In this document: piece after piece, positions 8,896 to 41,865 of the stretch
Numbering within the stretch: position 1 is the first letter of the stretch
How the letters are laid out: every line of letters starts with the position of its first letter
IMG/VR virus record: IMGVR_UViG_3300007177_000042
Source of the DNA: a virus
Lineage: Duplodnaviria; Caudoviricetes
Reading direction: 5' to 3' (one strand)
Length of the DNA stretch: 64,000 bases
Translations under genes and position numbers: made by a program
The notes under the pieces: generated by a model
Told to the model about the DNA's origin: nothing
What the model saw: the letters and a program-made list of their open reading frames with translations, nothing else
Database searches by the model: none

Positions 8896-10006
8896 TTTTT
8901 GAATTGTTTGATCTGTAACTTATTCCATGCATTCCGTCCATCTCTGTCTCACCAAAAGCAGCCCGCCGATGATCTGAATATACCTTACGACCTCTGTAAG
9001 CTTTGTATTTCCATAGTTTTTTAGCAACTGGACAAAGCGAATCAGTAGTACATCCACAGTTAATTTTCATACGATATTTCCACTAAACATTAAATGTTGT
9101 TGTTTAGGTTTGCGTTTTGTAGGCTTTTTTGGTTGCGGAGGCGTTGGTGCAGTCAGTGTGTAGCAATGTTCCGAATCTTCGGTGGGAACAGGTCCACAAC
9201 CGCATCCACATGCGAATCCATGATAAGATCGGATTGGACGATTTTCTCGTTTGGCTTGTGCAAACATAAGCGATTCAATCCAACGATATTCTCTCATTTG
9301 CTTTTGAGAAAAGAAATACCGTCCTTTCGGTGAAGAACGTCTCGGCTTGTTATCGTAGTCAATTTTCATATCAATCAATATGTTCCCGAGTTGCTAAAAT
9401 CTTTTTTACTCTATTTTTATAACCAGTTAGATGTGCTATTTCAGGAACTATGACTCTTTCAAATTCCTCTTTTCCCAAAATCCAACTATTGCATAAATTA
9501 CAACATATGCCATAAGACATTTTTCGTCGTCGCACTTTATGTTCAATTGCTCTAATTGAGTTTAGAACCCCAAGCAATCTATTTGTATTGAGTTTTTGTA
9601 ACTCATTAACGGTCAAGAATTTGAGAAACGGCTTTGATTTCAAAGGTTTTTGTTTCATATACCCACTTTACCACGACTTTATCAAAAGTCAACTGGTTTC
9701 TTTCAACCGATTTTCTTTCAAAAGCTGCCAGTAATGTTCATAACTGGTACTGTTTTCAAATACTGCCAAATCTTTTTGATATCTTGCAATTTCTTCTTTA
9801 TACGCAGCAACTCGTTCTTGTCTAACAGTTTCAAATAAACGAGAACGTGTTACGACGTATTCTTTTTCATCCCAATAATGGTCGGTATATGTATCTTTAA
9901 ACGTCACATCATTGTCTGTATGAGACACATAGTTTTTATTTTCTGTATCTATGAACCGTTCATGCACAGATCCAGTATATCCAATTTCATAGTATGTTAT
10001 CTTCAT
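8885..10006 (-). CDS. run of four small hypothetical genes (8885-9070, 9067-9370, 9371-9658, 9689-10006)
   Basis: abutting or overlapping ORFs on the main strand. Confidence 0.55.
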
Positions 10007-14674: not shown

Positions 14675-15898
14675 TTATGTTGATTGCAATTCACCACGAA
14701 TGTGTTCCAAATATTCTGATGGAACAATTTCGCTATATTTGGGAGACAACATCAAGTTCCCAGCGTCTTTAGCATCCTGATGATATCCCATAAGATACGC
14801 TGATCTTCTATAAAAGTCAAGAGCTTTCCAACCGGAATCGGCGTATGCGTCAGTTTCAATCCAAACCACACGTTTATCGGGAAATGGATTGTTGTTTTTT
14901 ACTGCCACAGAAGAATACAGATAAGCATTTGGCACATCATTGCGTCTGTTTAGATAATGATGGCATAATTTCATTAATGATTCGTTTCGATCTTTGTCAA
15001 AATAGAATGCTTGTTTCCAATATTCCACTGCTTTATCGTATTCTTTGACAGCCTCGCACATATTGCCCATCAAATACAAAGCGTAATATGTGAATTCATC
15101 CTTGTTGGGTACAGCATGAAGATTAGCGTTTGGGTATTCTGGAACAATACGTTTAATGTATCTGGAGAAAAAGAAACATGCTCTGTTCACAATTTCTTTT
15201 GAGAATTCCAAATCATATTTGAGTGCGTCTTCCCAACCCAATCCATCGTGATATGATTTGCCAACATAAAATAGATGGTATGCGTCTGTAAAGTTTTGTT
15301 TTACAACTACTTGTTGTTCTAATTCAAGACCATCCAAAAAGAATTTATCTGGATTGACCCATGTGTTACCACCACCAACCAAAACGTGTCTGAATGACCT
15401 TGGCAGATTGCCGCACGAATATGGTGCGTTGTCTTTCATATGAATTGTTTCATGACGACGATCATCAGCGAAATACCAAGGCAAATCTGCCTTCCACAGC
15501 CACATTCGATAATAGTCAATACCACCTGATCTTGCTATGACGTTCCATGCGTCTTTACTACGAATCACGTCCCAGTCAAAATCAGTATCTACTTGAAAAA
15601 TTTCATCAGCGTCTACTCTTAAAATATACTCACATCCATGTTGTGCGCTCATACATGTTTGTAGTGCATGATTTCTGTTGTATCCAAAATACTTCCATGG
15701 TTCGTGATATAAAAAGCCTGGAATTCCTTTTCGTTCAAAAAAGTTTCGGATGATATCTGGTGTACCATCAGTTGATCCATTATCTTGTATCACCCAATAG
15801 TCAATATATTTGTAAACCGATTCGAGCATTCGTTCAATGACGGATGCCTCATTTTTTACCATGCTGTTTAGTACAATTTTTATATTTCTCTCACTCAT
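14675..15898 (-). CDS. GT2-like glycosyltransferase with TPR-like C-terminus
   Basis: MVKNEASVIERML, DNGSTDGT, RNHAL, DADE; helical repeats. Confidence 0.85.
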   Translation of the reverse strand: MSERNIKIVLNSMVKNEASVIERMLESVYKYIDYWVIQDNGSTDGTPDIIRNFFERKGIPGFLYHEPWKYFGYNRNHALQTCMSAQHGCEYILRVDADEIFQVDTDFDWDVIRSKDAWNVIARSGGIDYYRMWLWKADLPWYFADDRRHETIHMKDNAPYSCGNLPRSFRHVLVGGGNTWVNPDKFFLDGLELEQQVVVKQNFTDAYHLFYVGKSYHDGLGWEDALKYDLEFSKEIVNRACFFFSRYIKRIVPEYPNANLHAVPNKDEFTYYALYLMGNMCEAVKEYDKAVEYWKQAFYFDKDRNESLMKLCHHYLNRRNDVPNAYLYSSVAVKNNNPFPDKRVVWIETDAYADSGWKALDFYRRSAYLMGYHQDAKDAGNLMLSPKYSEIVPSEYLEHIRGELQST

Positions 15899-27432: not shown

Positions 27433-27710
27433 AAAATTCCACCGTAAGTTTCTTCAAGAGGAATGCTTTCGAGCGTTCCCAAGTAACGACCCCAACGATC
27501 TGGCCATTCTGCTTTTGAATATTCCTCGTCGGGAGTTCCAATACATTCGTCGTGAACATTGTAGTATCCACCAAGATAATACACCCTCAACCACGGACTG
27601 TCATGTCCAACGTCAATGACGTTTACGACACGAACGTCTCCGTTGTCGTCGGTCCATTCCCACAATCCTTCTTTGTCTGGTTTCATACTTATTTGATAAT
27701 TTCTAACCAT
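27429..27710 (-). CDS. hypothetical protein
   Basis: ORF track. Confidence 0.55.
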   Translation of the reverse strand: MVRNYQISMKPDKEGLWEWTDDNGDVRVVNVIDVGHDSPWLRVYYLGGYYNVHDECIGTPDEEYSKAEWPDRWGRYLGTLESIPLEETYGGIL

Positions 27711-28171
27711 TTGGTATAGTCCGATTCAGACACACCCAATGTGTCTAACCACTCTGAAAAATACTGAGTCAACTCTGCTGAGTTTTCATGAGTAGCTTTA
27801 TGATAGATTTCAAAATCTTTACGGTTCTGAATCTTATCTGCTGTCAACATTTGATTAACTTGATGCAACGGCGACAGTGGATTCTTTGGCTTTTTCATGC
27901 CACACAACCACGCATTGGCAGTTCTGCGGTATTCCATAGCAAAAATCAACGTCTTGCCGTCAAGATGTTGAACAGTTTCGTAATTTTTTGCTAAAGATTC
28001 ACCGTCTTGTACAATTGGATGAATAACGTATGCTTTTTTGGTGGCATCACAACAATTCAAAAGATCCAAAATCTTCAATCCCTCATTGATATGATTGATC
28101 AGTGGTACCCCCGACCGTTTGGCACAACGAGTACCATAGAATTCTGTGATCAAGTCGTATGCAGTTTTCAT
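27689..28171 (-). CDS. divergent Mesh1/SAH-like HD-fold protein
   Basis: KRSGVPLINH, IHPIVQD, ADKIQN resemble RelA/SpoT hydrolase motifs. Confidence 0.45.
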   Translation of the reverse strand: MKTAYDLITEFYGTRCAKRSGVPLINHINEGLKILDLLNCCDATKKAYVIHPIVQDGESLAKNYETVQHLDGKTLIFAMEYRRTANAWLCGMKKPKNPLSPLHQVNQMLTADKIQNRKDFEIYHKATHENSAELTQYFSEWLDTLGVSESDYTKWLEIIK

Positions 28172-28808
28172 TTTTCACTCTCTCGGATTTCTTTGATGCT
28201 GCTTAGAATACGATGTGCAAATTGTTCAAGTTCAATACTATCTTGAAATTTAACGATGGTATTGTCACCAATGAAAACCAATAAACAGTCTTCATACACG
28301 TCGCCGTCTTTATCATACAAATTGTATGCGTAAGAGTATTTCATGGATGTACTTTCTTTAGACCAGTAGAAGGAGTCATTGTCCACAGTCCCGTAAACTG
28401 CTCAGGACCATCGCAATAACGAGTGTTGATATCAGCATAATCCTTTTCTGGATACTTGCTGGCGTCGTCACAAATACCAATGTGTTCGGAGTGAACACAC
28501 TGAATAATGTAGACCGAATGGGTCTTAATCAATACTTGTTTCAAATTAGGAAAACAAGCCAACATACGATTTGGAATTGCCCGAAGTTCAAGAATGTTTG
28601 CCCATCGTTCAGGGTATTCCATATCGATACACGTAATGTCAGGATCAACCATACACTTGTCAAACATGATTTCCAAAATGGTTTTTCCACGATACATCAA
28701 CATTTCACCAATACCATCACGAAGATTGGGGCGAGTATACACCAAAACCCTGAACTCTATCTGTTCGCCCTTGGAATTCTTGTAGTGATCACTCTTGTAT
28801 GTTCTCAT
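28168..28808 (-). CDS. two hypothetical genes (28168-28386, 28341-28808)
   Basis: ORF track. Confidence 0.55.
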
Positions 28809-28844: not shown

Positions 28845-29266
28845 TCTTTTTTAGTTTCTCGCGATTGTTTGACAACAGGATCGTCTTCCAACAATTCTGG
28901 ATTGTCAAAGATATTGCCAATGACAATCAAGTCACAGCCACAGCAATCACAAAAAACATAATTGCTTAGTTCGTTACCGCCCACGTAACTTTGACATATA
29001 CAAAATGATTCACGAAGCCATGTGATTACTCCACGGGTGTATTTTGGTGCGCCAAACAATACGCCAATACCACTATCAATGGTTTTGACTACATCACCTT
29101 CATAGATTTTCTTACCATGTTTGTCAAGAACACCTGTATACCACTGAATGATACGACCTTGTTTGACAATCTGTTGGTTTGGATAAATCATCAACGGCGT
29201 GTCGTCCCAACACCGATACTTCTCGTCATAGACACGACATTCACTGATTGTGTTTCGGTTATTCAT
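28841..29266 (-). CDS. YopX family protein
   Basis: QWYTGVLDKHGKKIYEGDVV, VIGNIFDNPELLE. Confidence 0.88.
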   Translation of the reverse strand: MNNRNTISECRVYDEKYRCWDDTPLMIYPNQQIVKQGRIIQWYTGVLDKHGKKIYEGDVVKTIDSGIGVLFGAPKYTRGVITWLRESFCICQSYVGGNELSNYVFCDCCGCDLIVIGNIFDNPELLEDDPVVKQSRETKKD

Positions 29267-30650
29267 AATCGATGTATGTTTTAGTTACTGGAAAGACTTC
29301 TGTAAAATCCGGATCGGTATATTCATAGGGCCATTCGTCTTGGCTTTCAGTTGCACCAGTTTGATAAGTGTCCATGAAATATTTTCCGTCAGACTTTCGT
29401 TTAACGACGATTTCGTGTACCACACTCCACCGTTTGTGTTCCACGATTTCGTTTTGGATTTCAACAAAGTCTTTGTTATCACCCCCGATAATATCTAGGG
29501 CTTGTTCTTTAGTTAACGTTAGTTTTTCTCTAGTTGGATTTGACATAAATTCTTGTTGATTTTAGATCTTCTAGGGTAAAGTGTCCAGCTTTTTCTTTCA
29601 AGTCACGCATCCAAGGACCAACATCGTCATGAAAATTGCTTGCTTCTGCGGCAGCTTCAATTGCCAGTAAAATAACATTTTCGTACCTTTTACCAAACTC
29701 AGCAAGTAACTGATCATACAATTGATCTTTTGTCGTGTATTTTTCTTTGTAGATAGACAAAGCACGAAGTTCTACTTCACAAAACTTTTCCAACGTTTTG
29801 TTCATGGTGATAATAGTCGAGAGCTTTCTGATGTTCTTCGGTGTCTATGACGACATCATTTGCATCTACATGTACATAAAACGTTTTGGGTGTGAATGGA
29901 AACGACTTGATATATCCTCGGCTTCTTCCATTGGTGAAGCTACATCCGGTTTCGTCAATCCACACAATAGCATCAATATAATAACATCCACCGTCTGTTT
30001 TAAAAACAGCACTGTTTCTATTATTTTGAAACAAAACTCCGTGTTGAGGTTGATTGTCGAGTATTTCATTCCATTCATCATCATTACCAGTCAATGGAGA
30101 TAATGTCTCATATCTTGCCAGTTTGTTGAAAAGACTTACCACGTAACCAGCGCTAAATCCGCTGTGACCTTGTTTGGCAAATGTTTCTATTAGTTCTAAT
30201 ATAGCCTTTTTTGCTGTATTATCATATTCATCTGTACCGTCATAACCAATGAGAGACAGTTCACGTTCAGCATGTTTTAATAAATTACTCATATGTTATT
30301 TGGGTTCTGGAATGTAACACCATCTTTCAGATTCATCAGATGCATCAATTACGAAATTATATTCTTCGTTGTCCGCAAAAAACCCACCTTTATGTTCTCT
30401 GACGCGTAGCATTTCAAGTCCTTGAGTAGAATCTGATTTATACCAATAGTATCCAGTTTTATTTGGTTTCTTTTTTGTCCACTTCATAGTTAATTTTGTT
30501 TTTATCGTTTAATAACTGTTTGAGACGTTTTTCTGCCAATTCAGACAATGGTACTGACTCTTTCAACTGAAGTAAAGCAGTAAGTTCATCGGTGATTGGA
30601 TTATTTAGTCGGCCTTCCAATGTTGGCCATTTTGGTGATATTTCACTCAT
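29259..30650 (-). CDS. run of hypothetical genes (29259-29546, 29530-29805, 29777-30292, 30296-30487, 30459-30650)
   Basis: ORF track; 29777-30292 resembles a common phage family (MSNL..HAEREL..GHSGFSA). Confidence 0.6.
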
Positions 30651-30804
30651 TATCTCAACCGTTTTCTGTTTTTTCTATTGTATCGACCACATACGGGACA
30701 TTTGCCTATTTCACCAACAATATTCCGGTCACATTTACACCAAAACTTGTGTTTTGTGGTTTTTTGAACCTTTTGTCTGTTCGTCGGTTGATAGTCAATT
30801 TCTA

Positions 30805-31323
30805 TCATGTCAAACCTTCCAATCGTGTTATCTGTCTACGCAAATTAGCAATTTCTTGCAACAACATTGTTCGTTCTTTCGCCCAGTCATATTCACTGCT
30901 ATGACGCAATGCCCATTTTGGTTCTTGGGTATCTCTATGTCCATAGTTGCCGCATAATACCCATTCGATATTGTTGTCATCCAACTGTTTTTGTGTTGCA
31001 CCGATGGGTTTATTCATATTTTTTTCAAAAGGCAATGTTCGACTTTCTCTATCCGGAAATCTGTTTCGTAAAGATTCGTCAACTTTTTTCATAATCCATG
31101 GTTCTATTTGTGCCCCGCTAGAACATTTACTACATCTACAACTTATCATATGGACACACGGCTGTCCGTTATATTTGTTTGTTCCTGTTCCATTACACTC
31201 TAAACACGAATCGTGTAAACATCGATTTTCCTTTTCTGCCATACTATACAAATATTCGTCTATAGATTTTTTTAAACTGCTTACTACCCACGGTTTAACA
31301 ATCGGTCGTGTGTTCGCTTTCAT
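30805..31323 (-). CDS. hypothetical protein with Cys cluster and C-terminal module paralogous to 38567-38776
   Basis: KPIGATQKQLDDN.IEWVLCG...KWALRHS.EY.WAKERTMLLQEIANL is shared. Confidence 0.65.
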   Translation of the reverse strand: MKANTRPIVKPWVVSSLKKSIDEYLYSMAEKENRCLHDSCLECNGTGTNKYNGQPCVHMISCRCSKCSSGAQIEPWIMKKVDESLRNRFPDRESRTLPFEKNMNKPIGATQKQLDDNNIEWVLCGNYGHRDTQEPKWALRHSSEYDWAKERTMLLQEIANLRRQITRLEGLT

Positions 31324-31991
31324 ATCAAGTTTAGATAAAAACGTATAAAATCACTTAGCCTGCAAATTTCCTCTGTTGAAAGTGGCAACTCTACCCCCGA
31401 TTTTTTTGTCCAGTTTGGATACGAATATCCGGAGATTTGTCCTTTAAAATATAATTCTCCATCGGATCCTAATCCCCAATACCATTTGGGCCATTTATAA
31501 ATATTTCTGGTTTCTTCATCGACCTGAGAATGATCATTTTGATATTTATCGTCTTTTAGTTTCTTAATTATAGTTATATTTTTATTCATTGAGGTAACGT
31601 TTTCTTATAGTTGTATTTGATATGTACTTTGACACTAAACGCAATTAGTCCTAATGTCAATCTAATATCAGTATAGGTGTGATTTGACGCAAAAGCATCA
31701 GCGTCGTAAATACTACATGGAAAGTCTAATCGAAATCCAAAAAACAATCCTCCAGCTTTTCTACAATGCCATTCTGGATATACTGATAGATACTTAGTTT
31801 TCATTTTTTCCGGTTTTTACTATTTGATGATATACAGTATGGGTTACGCTATATGGATCACCATCCCACATCTTTTGTTCTACAACTGTTTCAATTTTTG
31901 GTTCTCCAAATAATTGCCATCCATCAGTTAAATGATTATTTACCGCCTCTGTAAATTTGATGGGATCGTATTGCTTAATTACTTTGATCTT

Positions 31992-34900
31992 CATATCAAT
32001 CCTTCTTATCTGTTATTAAAGGTGTAGTATACAATGGAATATACGGTGTGTAAACAGCAATGTTACCAACTATCATATAATCTTTTTCAGTGGTGCCTTC
32101 TATTGGAAAATTATCCTTTTTGATTTCACTCGCAAGTATTCTGCTGTTTTCCAACATCTCATTTAATGTATATCCTTTTTCAGTCATATCAATCTTTTTG
32201 TTTGTCGGATCTTCTACCATCTATTACATATCGAAATGAAATAATACTTGGTTTTGTATACACGTCTTTGATCACAAATCTGTTGGAATTATATATTAAA
32301 TCCAATCCAGAAATAAATGGATCGCCGTCAAATATATCAAACCGAATGTTGTTATTCTTTCTTGTGATATAACGATTGTATCTAGCGATATTGGTTCTAT
32401 GAATATCAAGAAAATCATTTAGATGATCATATTTTCGGATAAAATCTGGATCAAGTGTATTATAAACCTCAACACATTGTTCATATTGTTGTTCAAAAAA
32501 CACACTGTTTAGTTCATTTTCTTGTGCATAATGTCCACCGTTATTTTTGCACCAGACAGTCAATTCTTCATTTGTGAACAAACTCGTAGCACTTCTACAT
32601 GAAGTATTGGGTATTATCATCTCATTAATATGATTTTAATTTTCCATTTTTGTCAATATGATAATGTTCTTTTATTTTTGGTATTTTGTTTAGTTCTTGA
32701 ATATCAGAGTCGCTGCCTCTGATATATCCTATATCTAGATTTAGTTGAACATGCTTTTCAGTTCCATACGTCTGCATATTAAACCCCATAATAATATCAC
32801 TTCCTCGCAATTCCATCTTTCTTTGTTTTAGAAATGCGTCAAGTTCTTTGATTTTTTTTAGTTGTGTTTTGGTCATATTAATTCTCTTCATTTATACTAT
32901 TTAATTCGGCTAAACATTGTTCCAAACAAATTCTTCTACGTCTCCATTCTTCACATGATAACCCTCCGTGATAACCCTCCCCAATATATTCTCCGGAACT
33001 CGCATGAATTAATTGTTCCGTAAGATACTCAGTTAACACTTCTTTATCCATTCTAAGTTTATATTTTTTTGCCGCTCGTATGAGTTTCAAATCATAGTCC
33101 GGACCCTCAAACAATTCTCTATATTGTTCTTCTGTAAAATTATTTAATATGATTGCTTTATTATATTCCAAGTCCGTCATACAACTATCACAATACCATC
33201 GTGTTTTAACTGACTTGTTAAAATCTACAAAATGATCAATCTCTCCGGTGGGTTTATTGCACGCAGGACATACTATATGTGTTTTTGTGGTCATATACCG
33301 TTTCCATTTTGATTATGATCTGTGTGTAGTTTTCTTACTCCATACCAGTCTATGGTTTTACCATTTTCTACATGCCATCCCCATCCCAACTCATAAGTCA
33401 TTCCATTTTTACTGATAGTAGTGGAAAATTCGTGGGGTCCGCAAAAATTTGAAATTACAAAACTTTCTTCTCTTATGATAGAGGCGTTTTTGAACCACTC
33501 ATAATATTCTTCCCGTGGTATTTCTTTATACCCACCGTATATCATATAATTTACTATTGACATATCAATTTTCATTAATTACTGTAATTTCTATTGGTGA
33601 TTTACATACGCGGCATCCACCTTTTGGTTTGCCATACAATGTATATGCATAAAAAGAAAATGTCGTTCCATAATTAACAACATCACACTCTGGATTGCTG
33701 CACTTGTATTCAATCACATTATTAATATTTGAACTATCATAACCTTTTAATTTCAACTCATTTAATTTATCTTCATAAGTCATATCAAGCCTTTTCTGAA
33801 AACTCTAATGTCATTTTATCTGCTACAATCTTACCCAACATTTTTTTTACTTGGTTTTTAGCATTTTTCAAATTGTAATCGGATACAATAATTTGCATTC
33901 GTTTGTTTATACCTCGTTCAAAATTGTCTAATTCAAAACAATAGTTCTTTAAAATCTTGCGGCTCATATCATTTTGTTTTTGATTATTGGTATATAATGG
34001 GCGTATACCATATTTTGTTCAATTTCAGTCGCCCATTTGAAATTCAATTTTCTGGCTTGTGGAACAAGAGTCGTAGAAATTATTAAATCTCCATCTTTTG
34101 TCTTTGTAAACTTCTTGTTTTTGACATATTGTTTACGCTGCTCAAACGGCAACATCCTAATAGGAGTGCAAACTGTGCAATATTCACTGCTATACCACTC
34201 TTTGGGTATACGTTCATCACAAATCTCCCACAATTTATCTGATTTTGGAATACAACGAACCATAATATCAGTCTGTCCAGTTCGTTTCATCCACTCTTTT
34301 AGATTCTCATATCCAAAGTTTACAACACGATGTCTACTACCATCGGTATCAATCAAATCAAAACAATTGCCACCGTCGATTGGATAACTGTCAGCAACAT
34401 AACCTACCAGTGTAGATCCTCCAATTTTTATGGGTATTGTTTTCATATTAATCCTCTTTTTTCAAATTGGTTTCAAATATCCAACCGTTTCGCCAAATAT
34501 GGAACTCATGTGAAAATCCTTTCCACGGATTATCATCAATGGATATTCCTTTTAATGCAGCATCTCGTCCATGCTCAATTATTCTATTACCAATTTGTTT
34601 AAGTCTATATTCTAGTTCTTCTTTACGGGTCATATCAATCTTTTTTGTATGGATGTGGTTCTCCTTTATTATCCACTAAAATTAGTCCGCTTGGATATTT
34701 TTTATTTTGACTCAAAAAACTACCAGTTTTTGATATACGATATTCAGGATTTGGATGCCAGTCAGCATATACTATTGTCAAGTTATTAGCTTTACCATAG
34801 GCATCGATTTCATCATGAGATGATTTATCTAAATTGATAGCCTTGATAGCCACACAACAATCACCAACGTTTATTAGTTTTTCATTCATATCAATTTTTT

Positions 34901-36849
34901 CTGTTGTCCTTCAATGAGAATTGGCTTCATCGGACCAGACGGTTCATTGGGCGGAAATATGTGCTTCCATTTTTCAGAAATAGTAGTTAGTTGTTGGTGT
35001 GAATTGTTCATGGTCCAATTTTCAATCAACTCGTCCTCACACAATACTTTGCCATCCTTTTTCCAATATGAATAATAAGTTCCTATTTGTGCAATTTCTT
35101 TGTCTATAGGCACCAATGACCATCCATCATTCATAGCATCCGCAAATGTTTTGTATTTCATATCAATCCTTCTACCACTGAAACTTGGATGTACGAATCT
35201 ATTGCTTTTAATACGTTTTGAACTTCGGTGGCTTTTTGCACTGCTGTTTCTATATTGAGATATTTATCTTTCAGTGTTACGTTTTCATAAAAGCCTATTT
35301 TTCCGGTTGGTTTGCTAATCTGAATAGCATAATTACACATATCATCATCTATTGCATTTTGATTTTTCCACGACGTGTTTATATTTTGTATTTTCATATC
35401 AATCCTTCTTTTTGTATACAGGTTCCCATTTTGGCAAATTTAATCCATCGGTTGTTCGTAGTTTACCAAGACACCACCAACTGGTTCCATTATTATACTC
35501 AGCCATCAACATTGGCGGGCTATATTTGTCTATTGATAGTGAATATTGGTAAAATTTGTCAGCATCAGTGTCTTTTTTATATCTAGCAACATATTCACAT
35601 TGCAACAATTCATCAGTGGTATTGAAATTCAATGTAAAATATTCATCTGAATCATACCAGTTAGGATGACGTTCAATAAATCTGTTTTTGAATCCTTTAT
35701 CAACATCATATTCAATACATTGTATAGAATGAGGCGCATCATTTCTACAACCACAAGGATGATGCGTTGATTTATATGTTCTATTACGCTCTTTTTGTTC
35801 GTGCTTTTCTTTTTCTTTTCGTTCTTTGTTGTTTTTTATTGCGGTCAAATAGAAATCCGCCGTATCTGGTTGTGTCATATCAATTATTTTAGTTTGAATA
35901 ACTGTAGGAAAAGATCCCACGAAGTCATTTCTTTAGGATATTCACTTTTTTCTTTTTTTATTCTCTCTAAGTATTTAATACGGCTTGGAGATGGAAACTT
36001 GCCAGTTCCTTCACAACTACAACATTTGCGTGGTTCATTCCCATATGTCATATAATATCCATTGCCGTCACATTGTCTACATATTATATCACCGGTAACT
36101 ATTCTATGTTGTTCCCAATCTTCATAACACTTGAATGAGTGAGAATACACTGTTGGTCGTCCCCTTTGCAATAATCGTTCACATCTATCACAATATCTAT
36201 CATATTCCGCTGTTGTTCCACTAAAATCTCCATAGGTTGAACACATACCTAATGTATGATCATAAGATTGAGCGTTGCACCGTCTACATACCATATATGC
36301 ACACCTAGAACACGTCTTAAAATAATGTCCTTGATCGTCAATGCAATCTGGTAGTTTAGAATCATTCATATCAATCCTCGGAAGTTATAAAGTCTATTTT
36401 TGATGAATATTCTTTCAAGAAGAGTTGTTCATCATTAATATCAGTGAATATAAAATAATCCCAAGGAAAATCTTCTGAAGTGCATTTGTATGATTTTCCA
36501 TTTAGAAATCTACCATAAAAATCATCATAGTCTTTTCCTCTTCCACGACATCCATAGTGGCGTTCACCATTCTTTATAAATGCCACAAATCCAAGCACAT
36601 TGTAATCTTCATTCATATCAATCCTTATTTGACATCAATATTGTATTTTTCTTTGATTAGTTGTCGGAAATCTGGTGTCTCCCAATGATCAAAATGTTCT
36701 TCGCCAGTATCTTTATCTATTTTGGTAACAAAACTGCGTTCTGACTCAGTATCATATCTAACAATATGAGTGACTCCCACAGTTTCTTTGTTCCATTTTC
36801 TTTGATGTTCAGTCGTGACGATGGTTGGTTTTTTCATATCAATCCTTCT
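31992..36849 (-). repeat. dispersed junction repeat AGAAGGATTGATATG (exact at 31992, 35159, 35395, 36835; 11-13-bp partial at 36367, 36614)
   Basis: plus-strand CATATCAATCCTTCT read directly. Confidence 0.9.
32189..32620 (-). CDS. hypothetical protein, paralog of 37457-38023
   Basis: FTNEELT.WC..NGGHYAQ.NEL and F.IKD.Y are shared. Confidence 0.65.
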   Translation of the reverse strand: MIIPNTSCRSATSLFTNEELTVWCKNNGGHYAQENELNSVFFEQQYEQCVEVYNTLDPDFIRKYDHLNDFLDIHRTNIARYNRYITRKNNNIRFDIFDGDPFISGLDLIYNSNRFVIKDVYTKPSIISFRYVIDGRRSDKQKD

Positions 36850-37026
36850 GTTTATTGGAAGCTTCCTTTATACATCGTTCAACCAAATCGGCAATATCTC
36901 TCAATACTTGAATTGAGAATGTGCCATCCAATTGAACCTTGTCATCATGACTATACCATGCTGATCCCCAACCTTTTCCATCTTTAATGATTTTTTCTAT
37001 ATCAGATGTTATACTATTCATAGTAG

Positions 37027-37460
37027 TCAACAACGTATCATTCCATGTTTCAACATAAACTCTGCCAATTGCCAAAATCCATACAACACAGTGGGATCTT
37101 TGTCAACTTCCTCGTAAAACAGAATAGCTGGATGTCCTCCCTTGTAGTATCGTTTGAAATCCGGATTCTCCGGATAAATCAATGCAACACTGTATCCCTC
37201 ATACTTGCACAAACGCTCAATCAAATCAAGCTCTTGCAAATGAGGGCCTACTGCATATGTAACGTAAATTATATTCATGGGTTAAAAAACAGATGACGAT
37301 ATCTCTTTGGTACAACGGTAAATACTATTCGTATATAAGTTGCAACAAAAAACCATAAAAAATCATCAAAATATTCTAGTAAAATTCGTTTAGATCGAGA
37401 AGGTAATCCCAACTTTTTTGCACTTTGTTTTGCTATACGTAGAATGTCTCGTTCGTTCAT
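37027..37460 (-). CDS. two small hypothetical genes (37027-37278, 37275-37460)
   Basis: ORF track. Confidence 0.5.
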
Positions 37461-38023
37461 ACAGATTTGAATCCTGTAAAATTGAGTGTTCGTTCATCCA
37501 GTTCTTCAAATGTTGGAACAATGTATTTGTGTGATTTGATATCAAAAATCGGAGAACCAAATCCATGCGATTTACCGTTGGGATATTCTCTGGTTGACGC
37601 AATCAAAGGCATCATTTTGGTATTTTCAATCACATAATCTGGATAATAGATGTCTTTGATGATGAATCTATAACTGCCATACTTGTGGCTATAAAATACC
37701 AACCACCGATTGAGTGCTTCGTATTTATCACATTCTGTTGGAATATGAAAAATCAAATGTCTAAATGACTTATATGGATCTTTATACGCATTTGGACTTT
37801 TTGGGTCATATTCCCTATCACTTGTCTGATAATAAGCATATACCAATTCATTGTCTTGAGCGTAGTGACCACCATTCTTTTCACACCACTCAGTTAATTC
37901 TTCATTTGTAAAGACGCTTTTTGGACTTCTATAAGTCTTGGTAAGTTGAGTTGATATTGCACCAAGCACTGTCACTGATGGCAATGCACGTGCGGTTGAT
38001 GTAATAAATTTTCGGCGGTTCAT
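37457..38023 (-). CDS. protein with putative twin-arginine (Tat) signal
   Basis: MNRRKFITS followed by a hydrophobic stretch. Confidence 0.55.
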   Translation of the reverse strand: MNRRKFITSTARALPSVTVLGAISTQLTKTYRSPKSVFTNEELTEWCEKNGGHYAQDNELVYAYYQTSDREYDPKSPNAYKDPYKSFRHLIFHIPTECDKYEALNRWLVFYSHKYGSYRFIIKDIYYPDYVIENTKMMPLIASTREYPNGKSHGFGSPIFDIKSHKYIVPTFEELDERTLNFTGFKSV

Positions 38024-38024
38024 A

Positions 38025-39095
38025 TTATTTATTTTCTTTTTTATTTAGTGCTTCATATAATTCTTTATCTACAATGATACTACAACAACCATCGTCTTCA
38101 AGATATTCATGTGCCAATTGATTGACGGCGATATAATCTGTATCAATATCTGAATCGTGAATATGTCTAAACGCATCTCTTAGTTCTTTTTCATCGGCTT
38201 TGGTTGGCACAACAATCTTGTATTTTGTCCATTTGATTTTGGTCCAGTCAAAATCAGGATCAGGAGATTTACATTCTTTTGGGTATTTTCTCATATTATT
38301 TTACAGTATATTTATCAATTAAAACATCTTCCATATGTTTTCTTCGAACACCATCAATGATATGAACATATACATTTTTAAAAACAAAATTTGATGCATC
38401 TGGTTGTTCGAGATAAAACACCATGCCTTGTTTTTCCAACCCAATAGTGTCCAGTTGTGTTTGTATGTCAAAACTATCTCTGTGACTATATGTTGGTTTG
38501 GATGTTATATGTTGTAGAATTTCTTCGCTTGTACCTTTTATTAGTTCGTGTGTGGTTATCATATATTTAATTTTGTAGACTTTTATTGATTCGTTTCAAA
38601 TTAGCAATTTCTTGCAACAACATTGTTCGTTCCTTAGCCCATTCATATTCAGTGCTGTGACGTAATGCCCATTTCTCTGGACCTTTATTCATACCAATAT
38701 TGTAACTTCCGCACAATACCCACTCAATATCGTTGTCGTCAAGTTGTTTTTGTGTTGCTCCAATAGGTTTGGTCATATCATCGATAGAATTTACTACGAT
38801 CATACTCTGTGTTTACCCACTTGTCAAACACACCTTTCCAAGCATCATAAACCAACCGCTTACGTGAATACTTCAATTCTTCTTCACAATACATCTTGAA
38901 CGCATCCCACGTATGACTACACCAACCATCGCCATATAAACTATAACAAAATTCTTTGAGAGTGATTTCTTTCTTATATTGAATTTTGTCTTTCAAAACA
39001 TCAATCCAACGCAATGTATCACCCCAACCATCTTGCATCGATTCAGCTTCAGCATAATACGATTCGTCTTTGATGTAACTTGTCTTTGTATTCAT
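38025..39095 (-). CDS. four small hypothetical genes (38025-38294, 38296-38562, 38567-38776, 38778-39095)
   Basis: ORF track with corrected starts. Confidence 0.6.
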
Positions 39096-39099
39096 ATTG

Positions 39100-39675
39100 T
39101 TATATATCCCCAAACGTATTTTTATACACTTCTGCAATTGCTGCTAAACCAGCGTCGGTCAAATCTCTCGTTCCAATACCAGCAAAATTCTTGGTTAACT
39201 TCGGAATCTCACCACGCATGCCTTCAAATCCCACAACCGGCTTATATCTACACCAATATCCTCCAGTAAAGCACGATGCATCGGGAACCCACACATATAC
39301 CGGTTTGTCACAATCAATTGCCATTTGAACGGCCCAACCAGTTCCTCCTTCAACAATTGTATTGGTCAAAAAACTTTTGGCAATTGCAAAAATTGCCTCA
39401 CTGTTCTTGACTTGAAACCAGTTTCGTGCCAATAGATTTTTGATGTATGGATATTGAATTGTATCAAAAGGTCTGCCGATGGATCTACTAGCAATTCTTG
39501 CAGCAGAATATCCTTCTTGAAGTTCTTCAGAGGTCAAGATCTTTTGGTTTCGACCGTGCTGTCGATGATTGTAAAAACTATATGCAATGGTTTTGACATT
39601 ATAGTGATACCCAATTTCCTCCCAACCCATGTCAGCACCTTCACATCCACCACTATGACAAATATAGTCGTTCAT
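39100..39675 (-). CDS. SLOG-superfamily (DprA/YpsA-like) protein
   Basis: HSGGCEGAD..W, GGTGWAV..A, AGIGTR. Confidence 0.65.
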   Translation of the reverse strand: MNDYICHSGGCEGADMGWEEIGYHYNVKTIAYSFYNHRQHGRNQKILTSEELQEGYSAARIASRSIGRPFDTIQYPYIKNLLARNWFQVKNSEAIFAIAKSFLTNTIVEGGTGWAVQMAIDCDKPVYVWVPDASCFTGGYWCRYKPVVGFEGMRGEIPKLTKNFAGIGTRDLTDAGLAAIAEVYKNTFGDI

Positions 39676-39678
39676 ATG

Positions 39679-40074
39679 TTACAAAGAACGATCACCCAAT
39701 ACCTCTGTATCTTCAACATCGGGAGCTTTTGCCATCCTAATCAATTCTTCCAATATTTCAACGTATTCCTTTGTACTAGTTGGTTCTTTTGATACAGTAA
39801 AAAACCATCCATGTTTTGATCCTACAGGTCCTACGTGCATTCTACATCCAACAAGGGGATTACCATCTTCGTGGGTCAATTCATTTATATCTTCTATTTG
39901 CGTTTCTTTCATATTGATCCTTTTTTGCAAATCATTATATAGTGTTTCCAACAATGTCAACTTTGCCTTTAACTCTATATTTTCCTTTTTTATCGATTCA
40001 ATCTCATCTTTTTTACTTTTTTCGCTTGATAAAAAACCAGGATTCATCAACGAATTATAATAGTCTTTAGTCAT
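39679..40074 (-). CDS. hypothetical protein with coiled coil
   Basis: ORF track. Confidence 0.55.
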   Translation of the reverse strand: MTKDYYNSLMNPGFLSSEKSKKDEIESIKKENIELKAKLTLLETLYNDLQKRINMKETQIEDINELTHEDGNPLVGCRMHVGPVGSKHGWFFTVSKEPTSTKEYVEILEELIRMAKAPDVEDTEVLGDRSL

Positions 40075-40634
40075 ACTTTCTTTACAAAATCACATTTGTC
40101 TGCGTCATTCATTCTAGCACTAATACCATCACACAAATGCAACAACCATGCTGCCTTCGTCTTTGGCATCACAGGACTACCCCATTCACGATGTCCATGG
40201 TGGGACAAAATGTTGTGTGTGACACTATCCGCATAATTACCATACTTAAGCCGGCGAAATGTACACGCACTATTCCAAACCAATGCACTACGACTGATGT
40301 GATGAATCAATCGTTTGTGTTCGGTGCTACGCCAAGAATTCATAATCGAATCAACTGGTTCATAATCCCACATCTTACCACAATCATGAAACAATGCACT
40401 CAAATACAACTCTACCTGATCGATATTTAGTTGCAACAGACTACAATTGGTAATACACAACTCAACCACTTCATGCGTATGTCTAAGTAGACCACCCTTA
40501 CCATAGTGGTGTTGTTCAGGTTTGCTAGACCCACTCCACAATTCAAAACGTGGATCTGCAATAACTACTGATGCAATATCGTATACGCCAAGAATTTCTG
40601 CACGTTCAATCAACTTTTCTTTTTCGTAGTTCAT
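40071..40634 (-). CDS. HD-domain phosphohydrolase (YhaM-like)
   Basis: HHYGKGGLLRHT, LFHDCGK, HH, SHHG, LHLCD..SA. Confidence 0.88.
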   Translation of the reverse strand: MNYEKEKLIERAEILGVYDIASVVIADPRFELWSGSSKPEQHHYGKGGLLRHTHEVVELCITNCSLLQLNIDQVELYLSALFHDCGKMWDYEPVDSIMNSWRSTEHKRLIHHISRSALVWNSACTFRRLKYGNYADSVTHNILSHHGHREWGSPVMPKTKAAWLLHLCDGISARMNDADKCDFVKKV

Positions 40635-40637
40635 AGT

Positions 40638-41865
40638 TTACCAAGAAATATTCAAATAGTCCCAACTGTCGCAGTCTCGATGATCATATCCATTTTTTCG
40701 TTTAACTTGATATCCATCTTTACGAAGTTGTTCCATTACAGATGTAATAATTACACTGTTTGGAGATTTAACTGATACCGTAGAAAGTCCCAGACTCGCT
40801 TGTTTACTGATATGTTCATATACATTTTTCAAATATATACTCAACGATGAATTACATGCTTTTTCACTCAAAGTACGTGCTTCAGATGCTTTCATAAATT
40901 TTATCGGTTGTGATGATTTGTAGGTTTGACCTGATCACTAACCCATTCGATGATGAATACTCGGGGAGCCACCTTGACCTTGACCATTTGTTCAACGTTG
41001 GGAATCAATCCCACAAACATCACCACTACAAATAAAATTACACCAAAAAGTATGCCAACCATCGATCCACCCCCGCTTTCTTCAAGCCAATTAATACATT
41101 TCTTGATGCAATATCCCAACACAATCAATCCGATCACACTAATAACAGTCCAAATGGTGGCTTGTGCAAATTTCCATGTCAAAAACTCTTGCACAACCAA
41201 CGGAGCTTGCTCTTGAGCAAAATCCACTGCCTTGATGATGCCAGTTTTGCTGGCACCATAGATTTCACTACCTGCGTCCTTGGCACCCTTGAGGATGTCA
41301 ACAAGTACACTGTTGATGGTTTCTTGTGGAATATTGTTTGTAACGGAATTATTCATATTTGTTTATTTGTTGTTTCTACGATTTACTCATACCGTTTACA
41401 TATGGTATCACGGTTAGTAACCAATGTCAACGTTTTACCATAAAACAATCAATGCCAACATCAATCCAGAAATCAACATCCAGAACCACCGTGGAAATTC
41501 AAGTGAAAAGTTTACCGAAAACTTCACGTCCTGATTGATCCATTTCTTTTTGTTTTGATCGACAGCGTTGTCTTTTTCGTTCATAGTGGATTTTTGTTTA
41601 TTTGGAAAAAATTTGTAGATTTGTTTTCCCTTATTGAATATTGTTCTCATACAACATCACTGAGTAGACATAGAAATCACAACGTGGTTTCGTCACGATA
41701 AATTCTGTTTAACTTTGCAGTAATTTCTTGTAGTTTGCGGAACCACTCCAGTTGTTTGGTCTTGGTAGCGGGTCCATCATAATAAGAATGTTGGGCAATA
41801 GCGGTTTCCAACTCCGTCAAATTGCCCACAATCTCATTGATTTTCTTGACGTTCTTTTGTTTCAT
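40638..41865 (-). CDS. small hypothetical and membrane genes (40638-40895, 40901-41356, 41435-41650, 41677-41865)
   Basis: ORF track; TM segments in 40901-41356. Confidence 0.55.

Follow-up and report, generated by a model that had tools for sequence, protein, structure and literature searches.

How phages gain and reorder genes without damage is an old question, for which linker homologies guiding the exchange have been set against random recombination followed by selection. The question is raised by an array of small genes in a 64,000-nt stretch of DNA (hereafter the window) from the IMG/VR virus record IMGVR_UViG_3300007177_000042 (Duplodnaviria; Caudoviricetes). The window corresponds to positions 105754–169753 of one linear contig of 171,680 bp with a GC content of 36.9%, whose completeness was estimated at about 49%. 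In the array, the motif TTGATATG or its variant TTAATATG recurs where one gene stops and the next starts. With 15 copies of one 8–20-nt joint in 5.5 kb, the array is an unusually clean natural test case. It is likely that the array is a variable ("hyperplastic") accessory-gene region, and that the motif joints serve both the shuffling of genes and their linking for translation. Recombination between cassettes probably takes place at the very joint that would link the genes in translation.

Thirteen copies of TTGATATG and two copies of TTAATATG were recognized on the minus strand, and each of them sits on the ATG of an open reading frame (ORF) of 61–172 codons (Table 1). All 15 junctions listed in a preliminary description of the window, which was made from the letters alone, are correctly placed. 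Four copies were described there as identical over 15 bp, and the identity extends two letters further, to a 17-mer. The conserved span around the ATG reaches from about −12 to +4, with the consensus A-r-A-A-R-R-A-TTGAT-ATG-A. GGA or AGGA ending 5 nt before the ATG is observed at 9 of the 15 junctions, and the positions −12 to −6 are purine-rich in nearly all of them.

The motif stands in different relations to the upstream gene. At ten junctions the upstream gene ends with GAT-TGA, followed by T and then by the ATG, and at the three ATGA-overlap junctions in Table 1 it ends with TTG-ATA-TGA. At the other two, an upstream TAA stop precedes the motif, and the ATGA of the motif provides a second in-frame TGA two or three codons later. 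The variety of frame contexts had been recognized in the preliminary description; the second TGA is an addition to it. Since the same letters are found in two frames relative to the upstream gene, the motif is conserved at the nucleotide level, as had been proposed.

The motif is concentrated in the array. The window contains 21 copies of TTGATATG, compared with 5.3 ± 2.4 in shuffled sequences. Genome-wide, 13 of the 18 minus-strand copies are found within 5.5 of 171.7 kb (binomial P 3e-16), and thus the motif is not spread evenly over the gene starts of the genome. A scan of IMG/VR for the exact 17-mer returned 25 contigs with one copy each, which is the chance level, and the 17-mer was multi-copy in no other record.

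Table 1. Positions of the junction motifs, the array and associated features in the window.
Feature	Position	Strand	Remarks
TTGATATG, 17-mer copy	36835..36842	-	stop of 36839-37021, start of 36625-36837
TTGATATG after TAA stop	36614..36621	-	second in-frame TGA in ATGA; start of 36371-36616
TTGATATG	36367..36374	-	start of 161-aa Cys-rich gene 35884-36369; joints 35156->36365 (X1), 36376->30816 (X1), 36378->34460 (X5)
TTGATATG after TAA stop	35876..35883	-	5' boundary of 159-aa cassette 35399-35878
TTGATATG, 17-mer copy	35395..35402	-	3' boundary of 159-aa cassette, start of 35158-35397; joint 35412->34460 (X8)
TTGATATG, 17-mer copy, ATGA-overlap	35159..35166	-	partner of 36367 in the joint with 14-nt overlap
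TTGATATG, ATGA-overlap	34887..34894	-	joint 34895->33811 (X5)
TTGATATG	34631..34638	-	start of 61-aa gene 34448-34633
TTAATATG variant	34444..34451	-	start of 160-aa gene 33964-34446; four contig joints end at 34453 or 34460
TTGATATG	33781..33788	-	joints 32193->33790 (X4), 33788->34460 (X1, 264 other letters between)
TTGATATG	33561..33568	-	start of 33291-33563
TTAATATG variant	32874..32881	-	start of 32625-32876
TTGATATG	32185..32192	-	start of 31996-32187; joint 32193->33790
TTGATATG, 17-mer copy	31992..31999	-	start of 31794-31994
TTGATATG, ATGA-overlap	31321..31328	-	start of 172-aa gene 30805-31323
Small-gene array	30805..37021	-	21 tightly packed genes of 60-172 aa; junctions of stop + 1 nt + ATG, ATGA overlaps or spacers of a few nt
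Direct repeat, downstream copy (~180 nt)	30841..31019	-	repeat families D3 and D6; encodes C-terminal module of the 172-aa gene
Direct repeat, upstream copy	38597..38778	-	within gene 38567-38803
Sigma-70-like site, best of the region	38799..38827	-	TTGACA-17-TATGAT, 11/12; 22 nt upstream of ATG at 38776; just upstream of the first ~180-nt repeat copy

Logan contigs from four metagenome runs, belonging to four studies, were placed on positions 29000–41000 of the window. They contain the array genes at 90–99% identity, differently joined, and across independent metagenome contigs the same genes are found at 90–99.8% nucleotide identity in other orders and beside other neighbours. Eighteen contig joints were listed, five of which have both ends at motif copies. 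Among the 36 listed joint ends, 13 fall within 10 nt of the motif, where 1.26 are expected (P 1e-10). The clearest joint, 35156->36365, skips three genes; 14 letters fit both sides, the depth is 10.6, and the shorter side has at least 255 letters. Some joints are located 9–13 nt from the core, within the purine tract. Many contig pieces start or stop exactly on motif copies (for example, 35395–35884, 36366–36616, and 33561–33788), which is the outcome of a de Bruijn graph when the neighbours vary within a sample. Logan assemblies use 31-mers, and therefore a repeat of 14–17 nt alone cannot generate chimeric contigs.

The 159-aa cassette (35399–35878) was found in four contexts, in which the upstream and downstream neighbours are all different. 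Its nucleotide identity is 98.8% in L033 (Logan), 99.8% in L034 (ENA, assembled with MEGAHIT), and 99.2% in L037 (a separate metagenome record), and the match spans from the ATG motif to the stop motif and no further. Two of the four contexts come from assemblers other than Logan's. These near-identical homologues were found by another search than the exact-protein look-up, which returned nothing on record for the 159-aa gene; a metagenome scan with the 159-aa family returned one locus only.

Related phages show a similar rearrangement. Scattered homologues in differing orders were found from the IMG/VR relatives L001, L002, and L003. L001 contains 13 copies of TTGATATG in 20 kb, all on the coding strand (13/0), and its parent contig G001 contains 14 copies clustered in 10 kb. 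In L035, five array homologues are reordered (31586, 33964, 32625, 35399, 33291), and each is joined by TTGATATG. Homologues of the 160-aa gene, for which the first IMG/VR scan with the protein returned no relatives, are present on the long contigs L038 (from a contig of 302,724 bp), L041, L042, L043, and L044, in yet other orders. In L042 and L043 this homologue lies close behind rIIB and an RNA ligase, which is a different genomic neighbourhood. The motif shows a strong bias to the coding strand in L038 (13/0) and L044 (13/1), and the loci of the 160-aa homologues share the consensus AAAAAGGATTGATATGA. The motif thus appears to be a trait of this phage group.

Among 14 sequences, 28 of the 105 ends of blocks with at least 92% identity are located within 10 nt of TT[GA]ATATG, compared with 2.0 expected. 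Compared as sequences, the contigs show the joint to be a site where gene content and order change among related phages. The preliminary description had offered a recombination joint as one reading of the motif, and independent samples support it: synteny is not stable, with gene order permuted in L035, L038, L041, L042, and L044, and the breakpoints, counted either as joint ends or as homology ends, are concentrated at the motif.

The mechanism is likely to be as follows. Each gene behaves as a cassette running from its ATG to its own 3′ end, where a purine-rich tract (often AAGGA) is followed by T-TGA-T, abutting the next ATG. For translation, a Shine-Dalgarno (SD)-like tract lies 5 nt upstream of the ATG, two of the three reading frames find a TGA stop in the joint, and the stop and the start overlap or are separated by 1 nt. 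This anatomy, in which the stop lies inside the motif, would fit translational coupling, the other reading offered in the preliminary description, and a ribosome ending one gene could restart on the next within one long transcript. For recombination, the 8–20 nt that recur at most boundaries are the only homology common to otherwise unrelated neighbours. Breakpoints between related phages are located in them; whole genes are deleted, inserted, replaced, or reordered in this way, and a working junction is regenerated. The exchange would probably occur in mixed infections, during recombination-dependent replication, by general short-homology recombination or by template switching, for which the RecA/UvsX homologue of the phage (genome positions 27585–28412) is available. 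Cassettes carrying the joint would spread preferentially, and the joint would stay uniform in this way.

The following points weigh against the double role of the joint. The breakpoints are not independent, as many were counted from both partners and several belong to one cassette; they correspond to about 15 independent motif events. A homology of 8–17 nt is far short of the requirement for efficient T4-type homologous recombination, and a dedicated enzyme may be present among the many function-unknown genes. The translational role is predicted from the anatomy of the joint. SD-like tetramers were counted for 8 of the 20 array genes and for 80 of 237 others, and are thus not commoner in the array. 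ATGA overlaps without the purine tract are used by other tight operons of the genome. Breakpoints on gene boundaries are expected in any phage mosaic through selection, and non-motif boundaries (AAATAATATG, and GGTATATGA at 33294) also bound homology blocks or serve as joints. The observations on SD-like tracts and on other operons bear on the uniformity of the joint as well: translation alone therefore does not explain it, and the likeliest cause is that the joint-bearing cassettes are those that move. The idea that the array stands out in an SD-poor genome was dropped, as the two counts are not different and the picking of start codons also favoured SD tracts. AAGGA-N5-ATG is also observed outside the array, at the free-standing gene at 39912, behind a promoter-like site.

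The non-motif boundaries are in line with another explanation, in which the motif is a translation start and coupling signal only, and the breakpoints seem to coincide with it just because random illegitimate recombination is followed by selection for intact genes. The junction does contain every part of a coupling site, and phage mosaics usually have their breakpoints between genes, as in mycobacteriophage comparisons. This explanation is nevertheless judged unlikely. Against it, new joints regenerate the motif in register, in one case with 14 letters common to both parents, and the sequence is nearly uniform in the shuffled region although other operons are translated without it.

Scars left inside genes also bear on the choice between selection and guided exchange. 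Positions 533–1002 of L033 are 98% identical to 10648–11117 of L001, following the 3′ motif of the cassette. The crossover point in L001 is a TTGATATG inside an 86-aa gene, and L033 retains a 6-codon remnant of it. The divergence between L001 and L002 begins just past an internal TTTTGATATG, and ATG-TAA remnants are found at this break spot in L002 and L044. L038 contains an exact 69-nt duplicate of a joint and gene start (14683–14751 = 9935–10003), followed by unrelated DNA. Altogether, crossovers at TTGATATG inside genes left remnants of 1–27 codons. Such scars would fit homology-driven exchange better than selection for intact genes, which would not favour or yield them, and they suggest that the exchange was guided by the sequence itself. 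Apart from the scars, about 440 nt downstream of the array end (L033 560–1002, equal to L001 10674–11117) contain no called gene and are 98% identical between two samples; this stretch may be a conserved non-coding RNA or a regulatory region.

A dedicated site-specific recombinase or nuclease could also recognize (GGA)TTGATATG and move the cassettes, possibly as circles, in an integron-like or homing-like system with a minimal site. The 8-nt core is invariant at most junctions of several related phages, and an internal TTGATATG was enough for a crossover. Three joints at motif copies go back along the array (36378->34460, 35412->34460, and 34895->33811), as expected of a circle junction or a tandem duplication; they are equally compatible with other gene orders, such as that of a relative. 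Many neighbouring genes are without known function, but no integrase, transposase, HNH, GIY-YIG, or other recombinase or nuclease family was found in about 30 proteins between 30296 and 39630. The motif is non-palindromic, and inverted repeats do not flank it. An attC-like palindrome was found neither within the array, where the junctions are 8–20 nt long and leave no intergenic space, nor next to it. The integron comparison of the preliminary description is therefore not supported as a mechanism, and the likeness is in the layout only. In addition, the joints 9–13 nt off the core look like variable crossover in a short homology patch, not like a fixed cleavage site, and the joints overall look homology-driven rather than site-specific. 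A dedicated enzyme is considered very improbable. The gene 39100–39630 was examined as a recombination mediator for its "DprA-like" PHROG match and was rejected; it has no Pfam support, and its homologues show only a faint nucleoside deoxyribosyltransferase-like match.

The motif could instead serve as an operator through which an RNA-binding regulator or RNase of the phage, comparable to T4 RegA or RegB, controls the array genes collectively, with recombination being incidental. The sequence extends over the ribosome-binding site as well as the ATG, and the genes marked by it are contiguous and probably early. It resembles the T4 RegA target (UUGUUAUG, compared with UUGAUAUG in the array). 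The RegA family (PF01818) has no match in the genome even at an e-value of 10, a weak negative as the record is about half a genome. The operator is also compatible with the evidence for recombination and would replace only the coupling part of the double role. It is the least probable of the explanations weighed here. Phage bS21 (PF01165) likewise has no match in the genome, with the same limit of a record about half complete.

A stronger version of the double role can be formulated. In this version, selection would have made the stop-start joint a "universal joint", a minimal cassette system without attC, in which the coupling signal itself is the recombination site. Its uniformity would be maintained because a whole group of freshwater jumbo phages can exchange promoterless accessory genes through it, possibly via circles and possibly helped by an unknown array gene. 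This version is put forward tentatively, and as a whole it is rather unlikely.

Expression of the array would depend on transcription from outside. The sigma-70-like site at 38827–38799 is a candidate promoter of a long operon containing the array. Promoter-like sites in 29500–41500 are not enriched (65, compared with 59.1 ± 6.3 in shuffles), and neither are terminator-like sites (8, compared with 5.8 ± 2.7), none of which lies at a junction. Because of this lack of enrichment inside the array, one long transcript across it is plausible. For the same reason, the motif as the −35 box of per-gene promoters was dropped. Genome-wide, many non-array genes lack an SD tract and instead show a TATAnT-like box whose end is about 7 nt upstream of the ATG, which suggests frequent leaderless or very short-leader mRNAs.

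The array genes themselves are mutually unrelated in all-against-all BLASTP, and their GC content is 31–35%, lower than that of the whole genome, both in agreement with the preliminary description, as is the ORF length. In the automatic gene call, 13 of the 20 array junctions have a 1-nt spacer or an ATGA overlap, compared with about 60% of gaps exceeding 12 nt elsewhere in the genome. Pfam and PHROG revealed no informative family among the array proteins; the only array gene with a Pfam family above the cut-off is 31794–31994 (minus strand), which matches DUF1737 with an e-value of 3.7e-07. The 61-aa cassette (34448–34633, minus strand) shows a weak match to the ribosome modulation factor (RMF) family PF04957, which falls short of the cut-off with an e-value of 0.0023, and a 53-aa gene in the relative L044 (8123–8284) is recorded with PF04957:RMF. 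The cassette may encode a phage-borne, RMF-like ribosome hibernation factor.

Paralogy was detected only with flanking genes. The array gene 32189–32620 and the gene 37457–38023, both on the minus strand, are 32% identical (e-value 1e-13). The latter has a twin-arginine-like signal (MNRRKFITS...), which is kept in L001–L003 and L041–L042, while the array copy is without the signal. The second case is the C-terminus of 30805–31323, which is paralogous to 38567–38803 through the direct repeat. The two copies of about 180 nt are 81–92% identical and bracket 7.76 kb including the array. The encoded module stands alone in 38567–38803 and is fused to a Cys-rich N-terminus in 30805–31323, with 76% amino acid identity (e-value 4e-32). 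An array-less form, generated by a joint between these repeats (30919->38683), was considered and rejected as too weak, with 25 letters on the shorter side. The module (KPIGATQKQL...; window 30604–31004 and 38597–38778) reaches a summed contig depth of up to 205, compared with about 5–10 for its neighbours, in four runs, and it is often followed by a zinc-ribbon gene of 52–55 aa (window 30650–30808, L001 9801–9968, and L044 8637–8804). The module seems to be widespread and multi-copy.

The contig encodes rIIA, two RNA ligases, DNA ligase, NAMPT, NAD synthase, a tail sheath protein, a DnaB-type helicase, and the RecA/UvsX homologue. The rIIA protein shows about 27% identity to those of T4-like phages, and the helicase is 37–45% identical to those of an uncultured huge phage, Microcystis phage Mel-JY01, and a Flavobacterium phage. 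Because these named relatives are distant and a related contig of 295,831 bp (G003) is rated complete, the source is a divergent T4-like jumbo phage. A DNA search with the region against GenBank phages, in near and distant modes, returned no match, and the phage is known from metagenomes only. The sequencing runs with pieces of the region were from freshwater, aquaculture, and estuary, which point to fresh or brackish water as the habitat; none of the runs listed was from RNA.

The closest known system is the shuffling mediated by the promoter early stem-loops (PeSLs) of T4-type phages. These repeats span about 100 bp and consist of an early sigma-70 promoter, a stem-loop terminator, a Shine-Dalgarno sequence, and a start codon (PMC2839356, PMC4122927). 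They bound indels in variable regions, and mini-circles have been shown physically (Arbiol et al. 2010, PMC2839356; Comeau et al. 2014, PMC4122927). Like the joint in the array, PeSLs are concentrated in variable regions upstream of small function-unknown genes, they bound insertions, deletions, and replacements between related phages, and they are proposed to be homology patches that shuffle whole genes while providing expression signals. The joint differs in its size of about a tenth, in the 0–1 nt between stop and start, and in the lack of a promoter and a stem-loop. Each PeSL cassette brings its own transcription unit, whereas the cassettes here appear to be promoterless and would depend on translation from a shared transcript. 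For circles, only the "goes back" joints are available here. The role of the joint thus matches that of PeSLs, while their promoter and stem-loop are lacking. The PeSL idea, which concerns transcription cassettes of about 100 bp, would be widened by the array to include a joint acting in translation. In a cyanophage study, PeSLs could not account for the variable unknown-gene region (PMC4503421).

Other repeated junctions were noticed in the relatives. In L001 (7040–7830 and 12715–14150), at least nine small genes in a row follow a second repeated junction, in which CCCCGTGGTAAAGTAA is separated from the ATG by about 6 nt. The junction resembles an extended −10 box for very short-leader or leaderless mRNAs, and it could be another class of cassette joint, nearer to PeSLs. 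In L002 (8632–10063), a tandem run of eight overlapping genes of about 46–77 aa, which look related, was found; each follows CAATTAnnnnnTCAATTAnnnnATG and begins with MNF or MKF.

The array resembles integrons in that unrelated, mostly small, and apparently promoterless genes are arranged in one orientation with variable content and order, with a single upstream promoter candidate. It differs from them because no IntI-type tyrosine recombinase and neither attC (an imperfect palindrome of 60–140 nt) nor attI was found, and the joint is a non-palindromic, putative translation signal. Ordinary coupling junctions such as ATGA, TAATG, and TGAnATG share with the joint a stop and a start that overlap or are 1 nt apart and an SD-like tract inside the end of the upstream gene. 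However, they are not nucleotide-identical across many unrelated gene pairs, and they are not known as preferred recombination points. In the literature search, no description of a stop-start joint that acts as a shuffling site was found. If confirmed, the joint would offer a simple design rule for building or evolving phage accessory-gene arrays, as well as a practical marker by which variable regions and the limits of cassettes could be found in uncultured jumbo phages.

As a general principle, this is not new: in the modular theory of Botstein, short conserved linkers between modules guide the exchange of otherwise unrelated DNA. To our knowledge, such linkers were rarely found in lambdoid phage and mycobacteriophage genomes, and illegitimate recombination with selection came to be preferred. 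The array conforms to this idea, with the difference that its linkers are explicit and dense and are backed by contigs from several independent samples. These contain near-identical cassettes in different contexts, and the scars indicate that the exchange used the letters of the joint rather than the gene boundary. What would surprise most is how dense and clear the joint is, and it opens the linker question to direct testing, with the mechanism and the translational role being inferred. If the "universal joint" is true, the array would be a direct and dense natural example of Botstein-type linkers.

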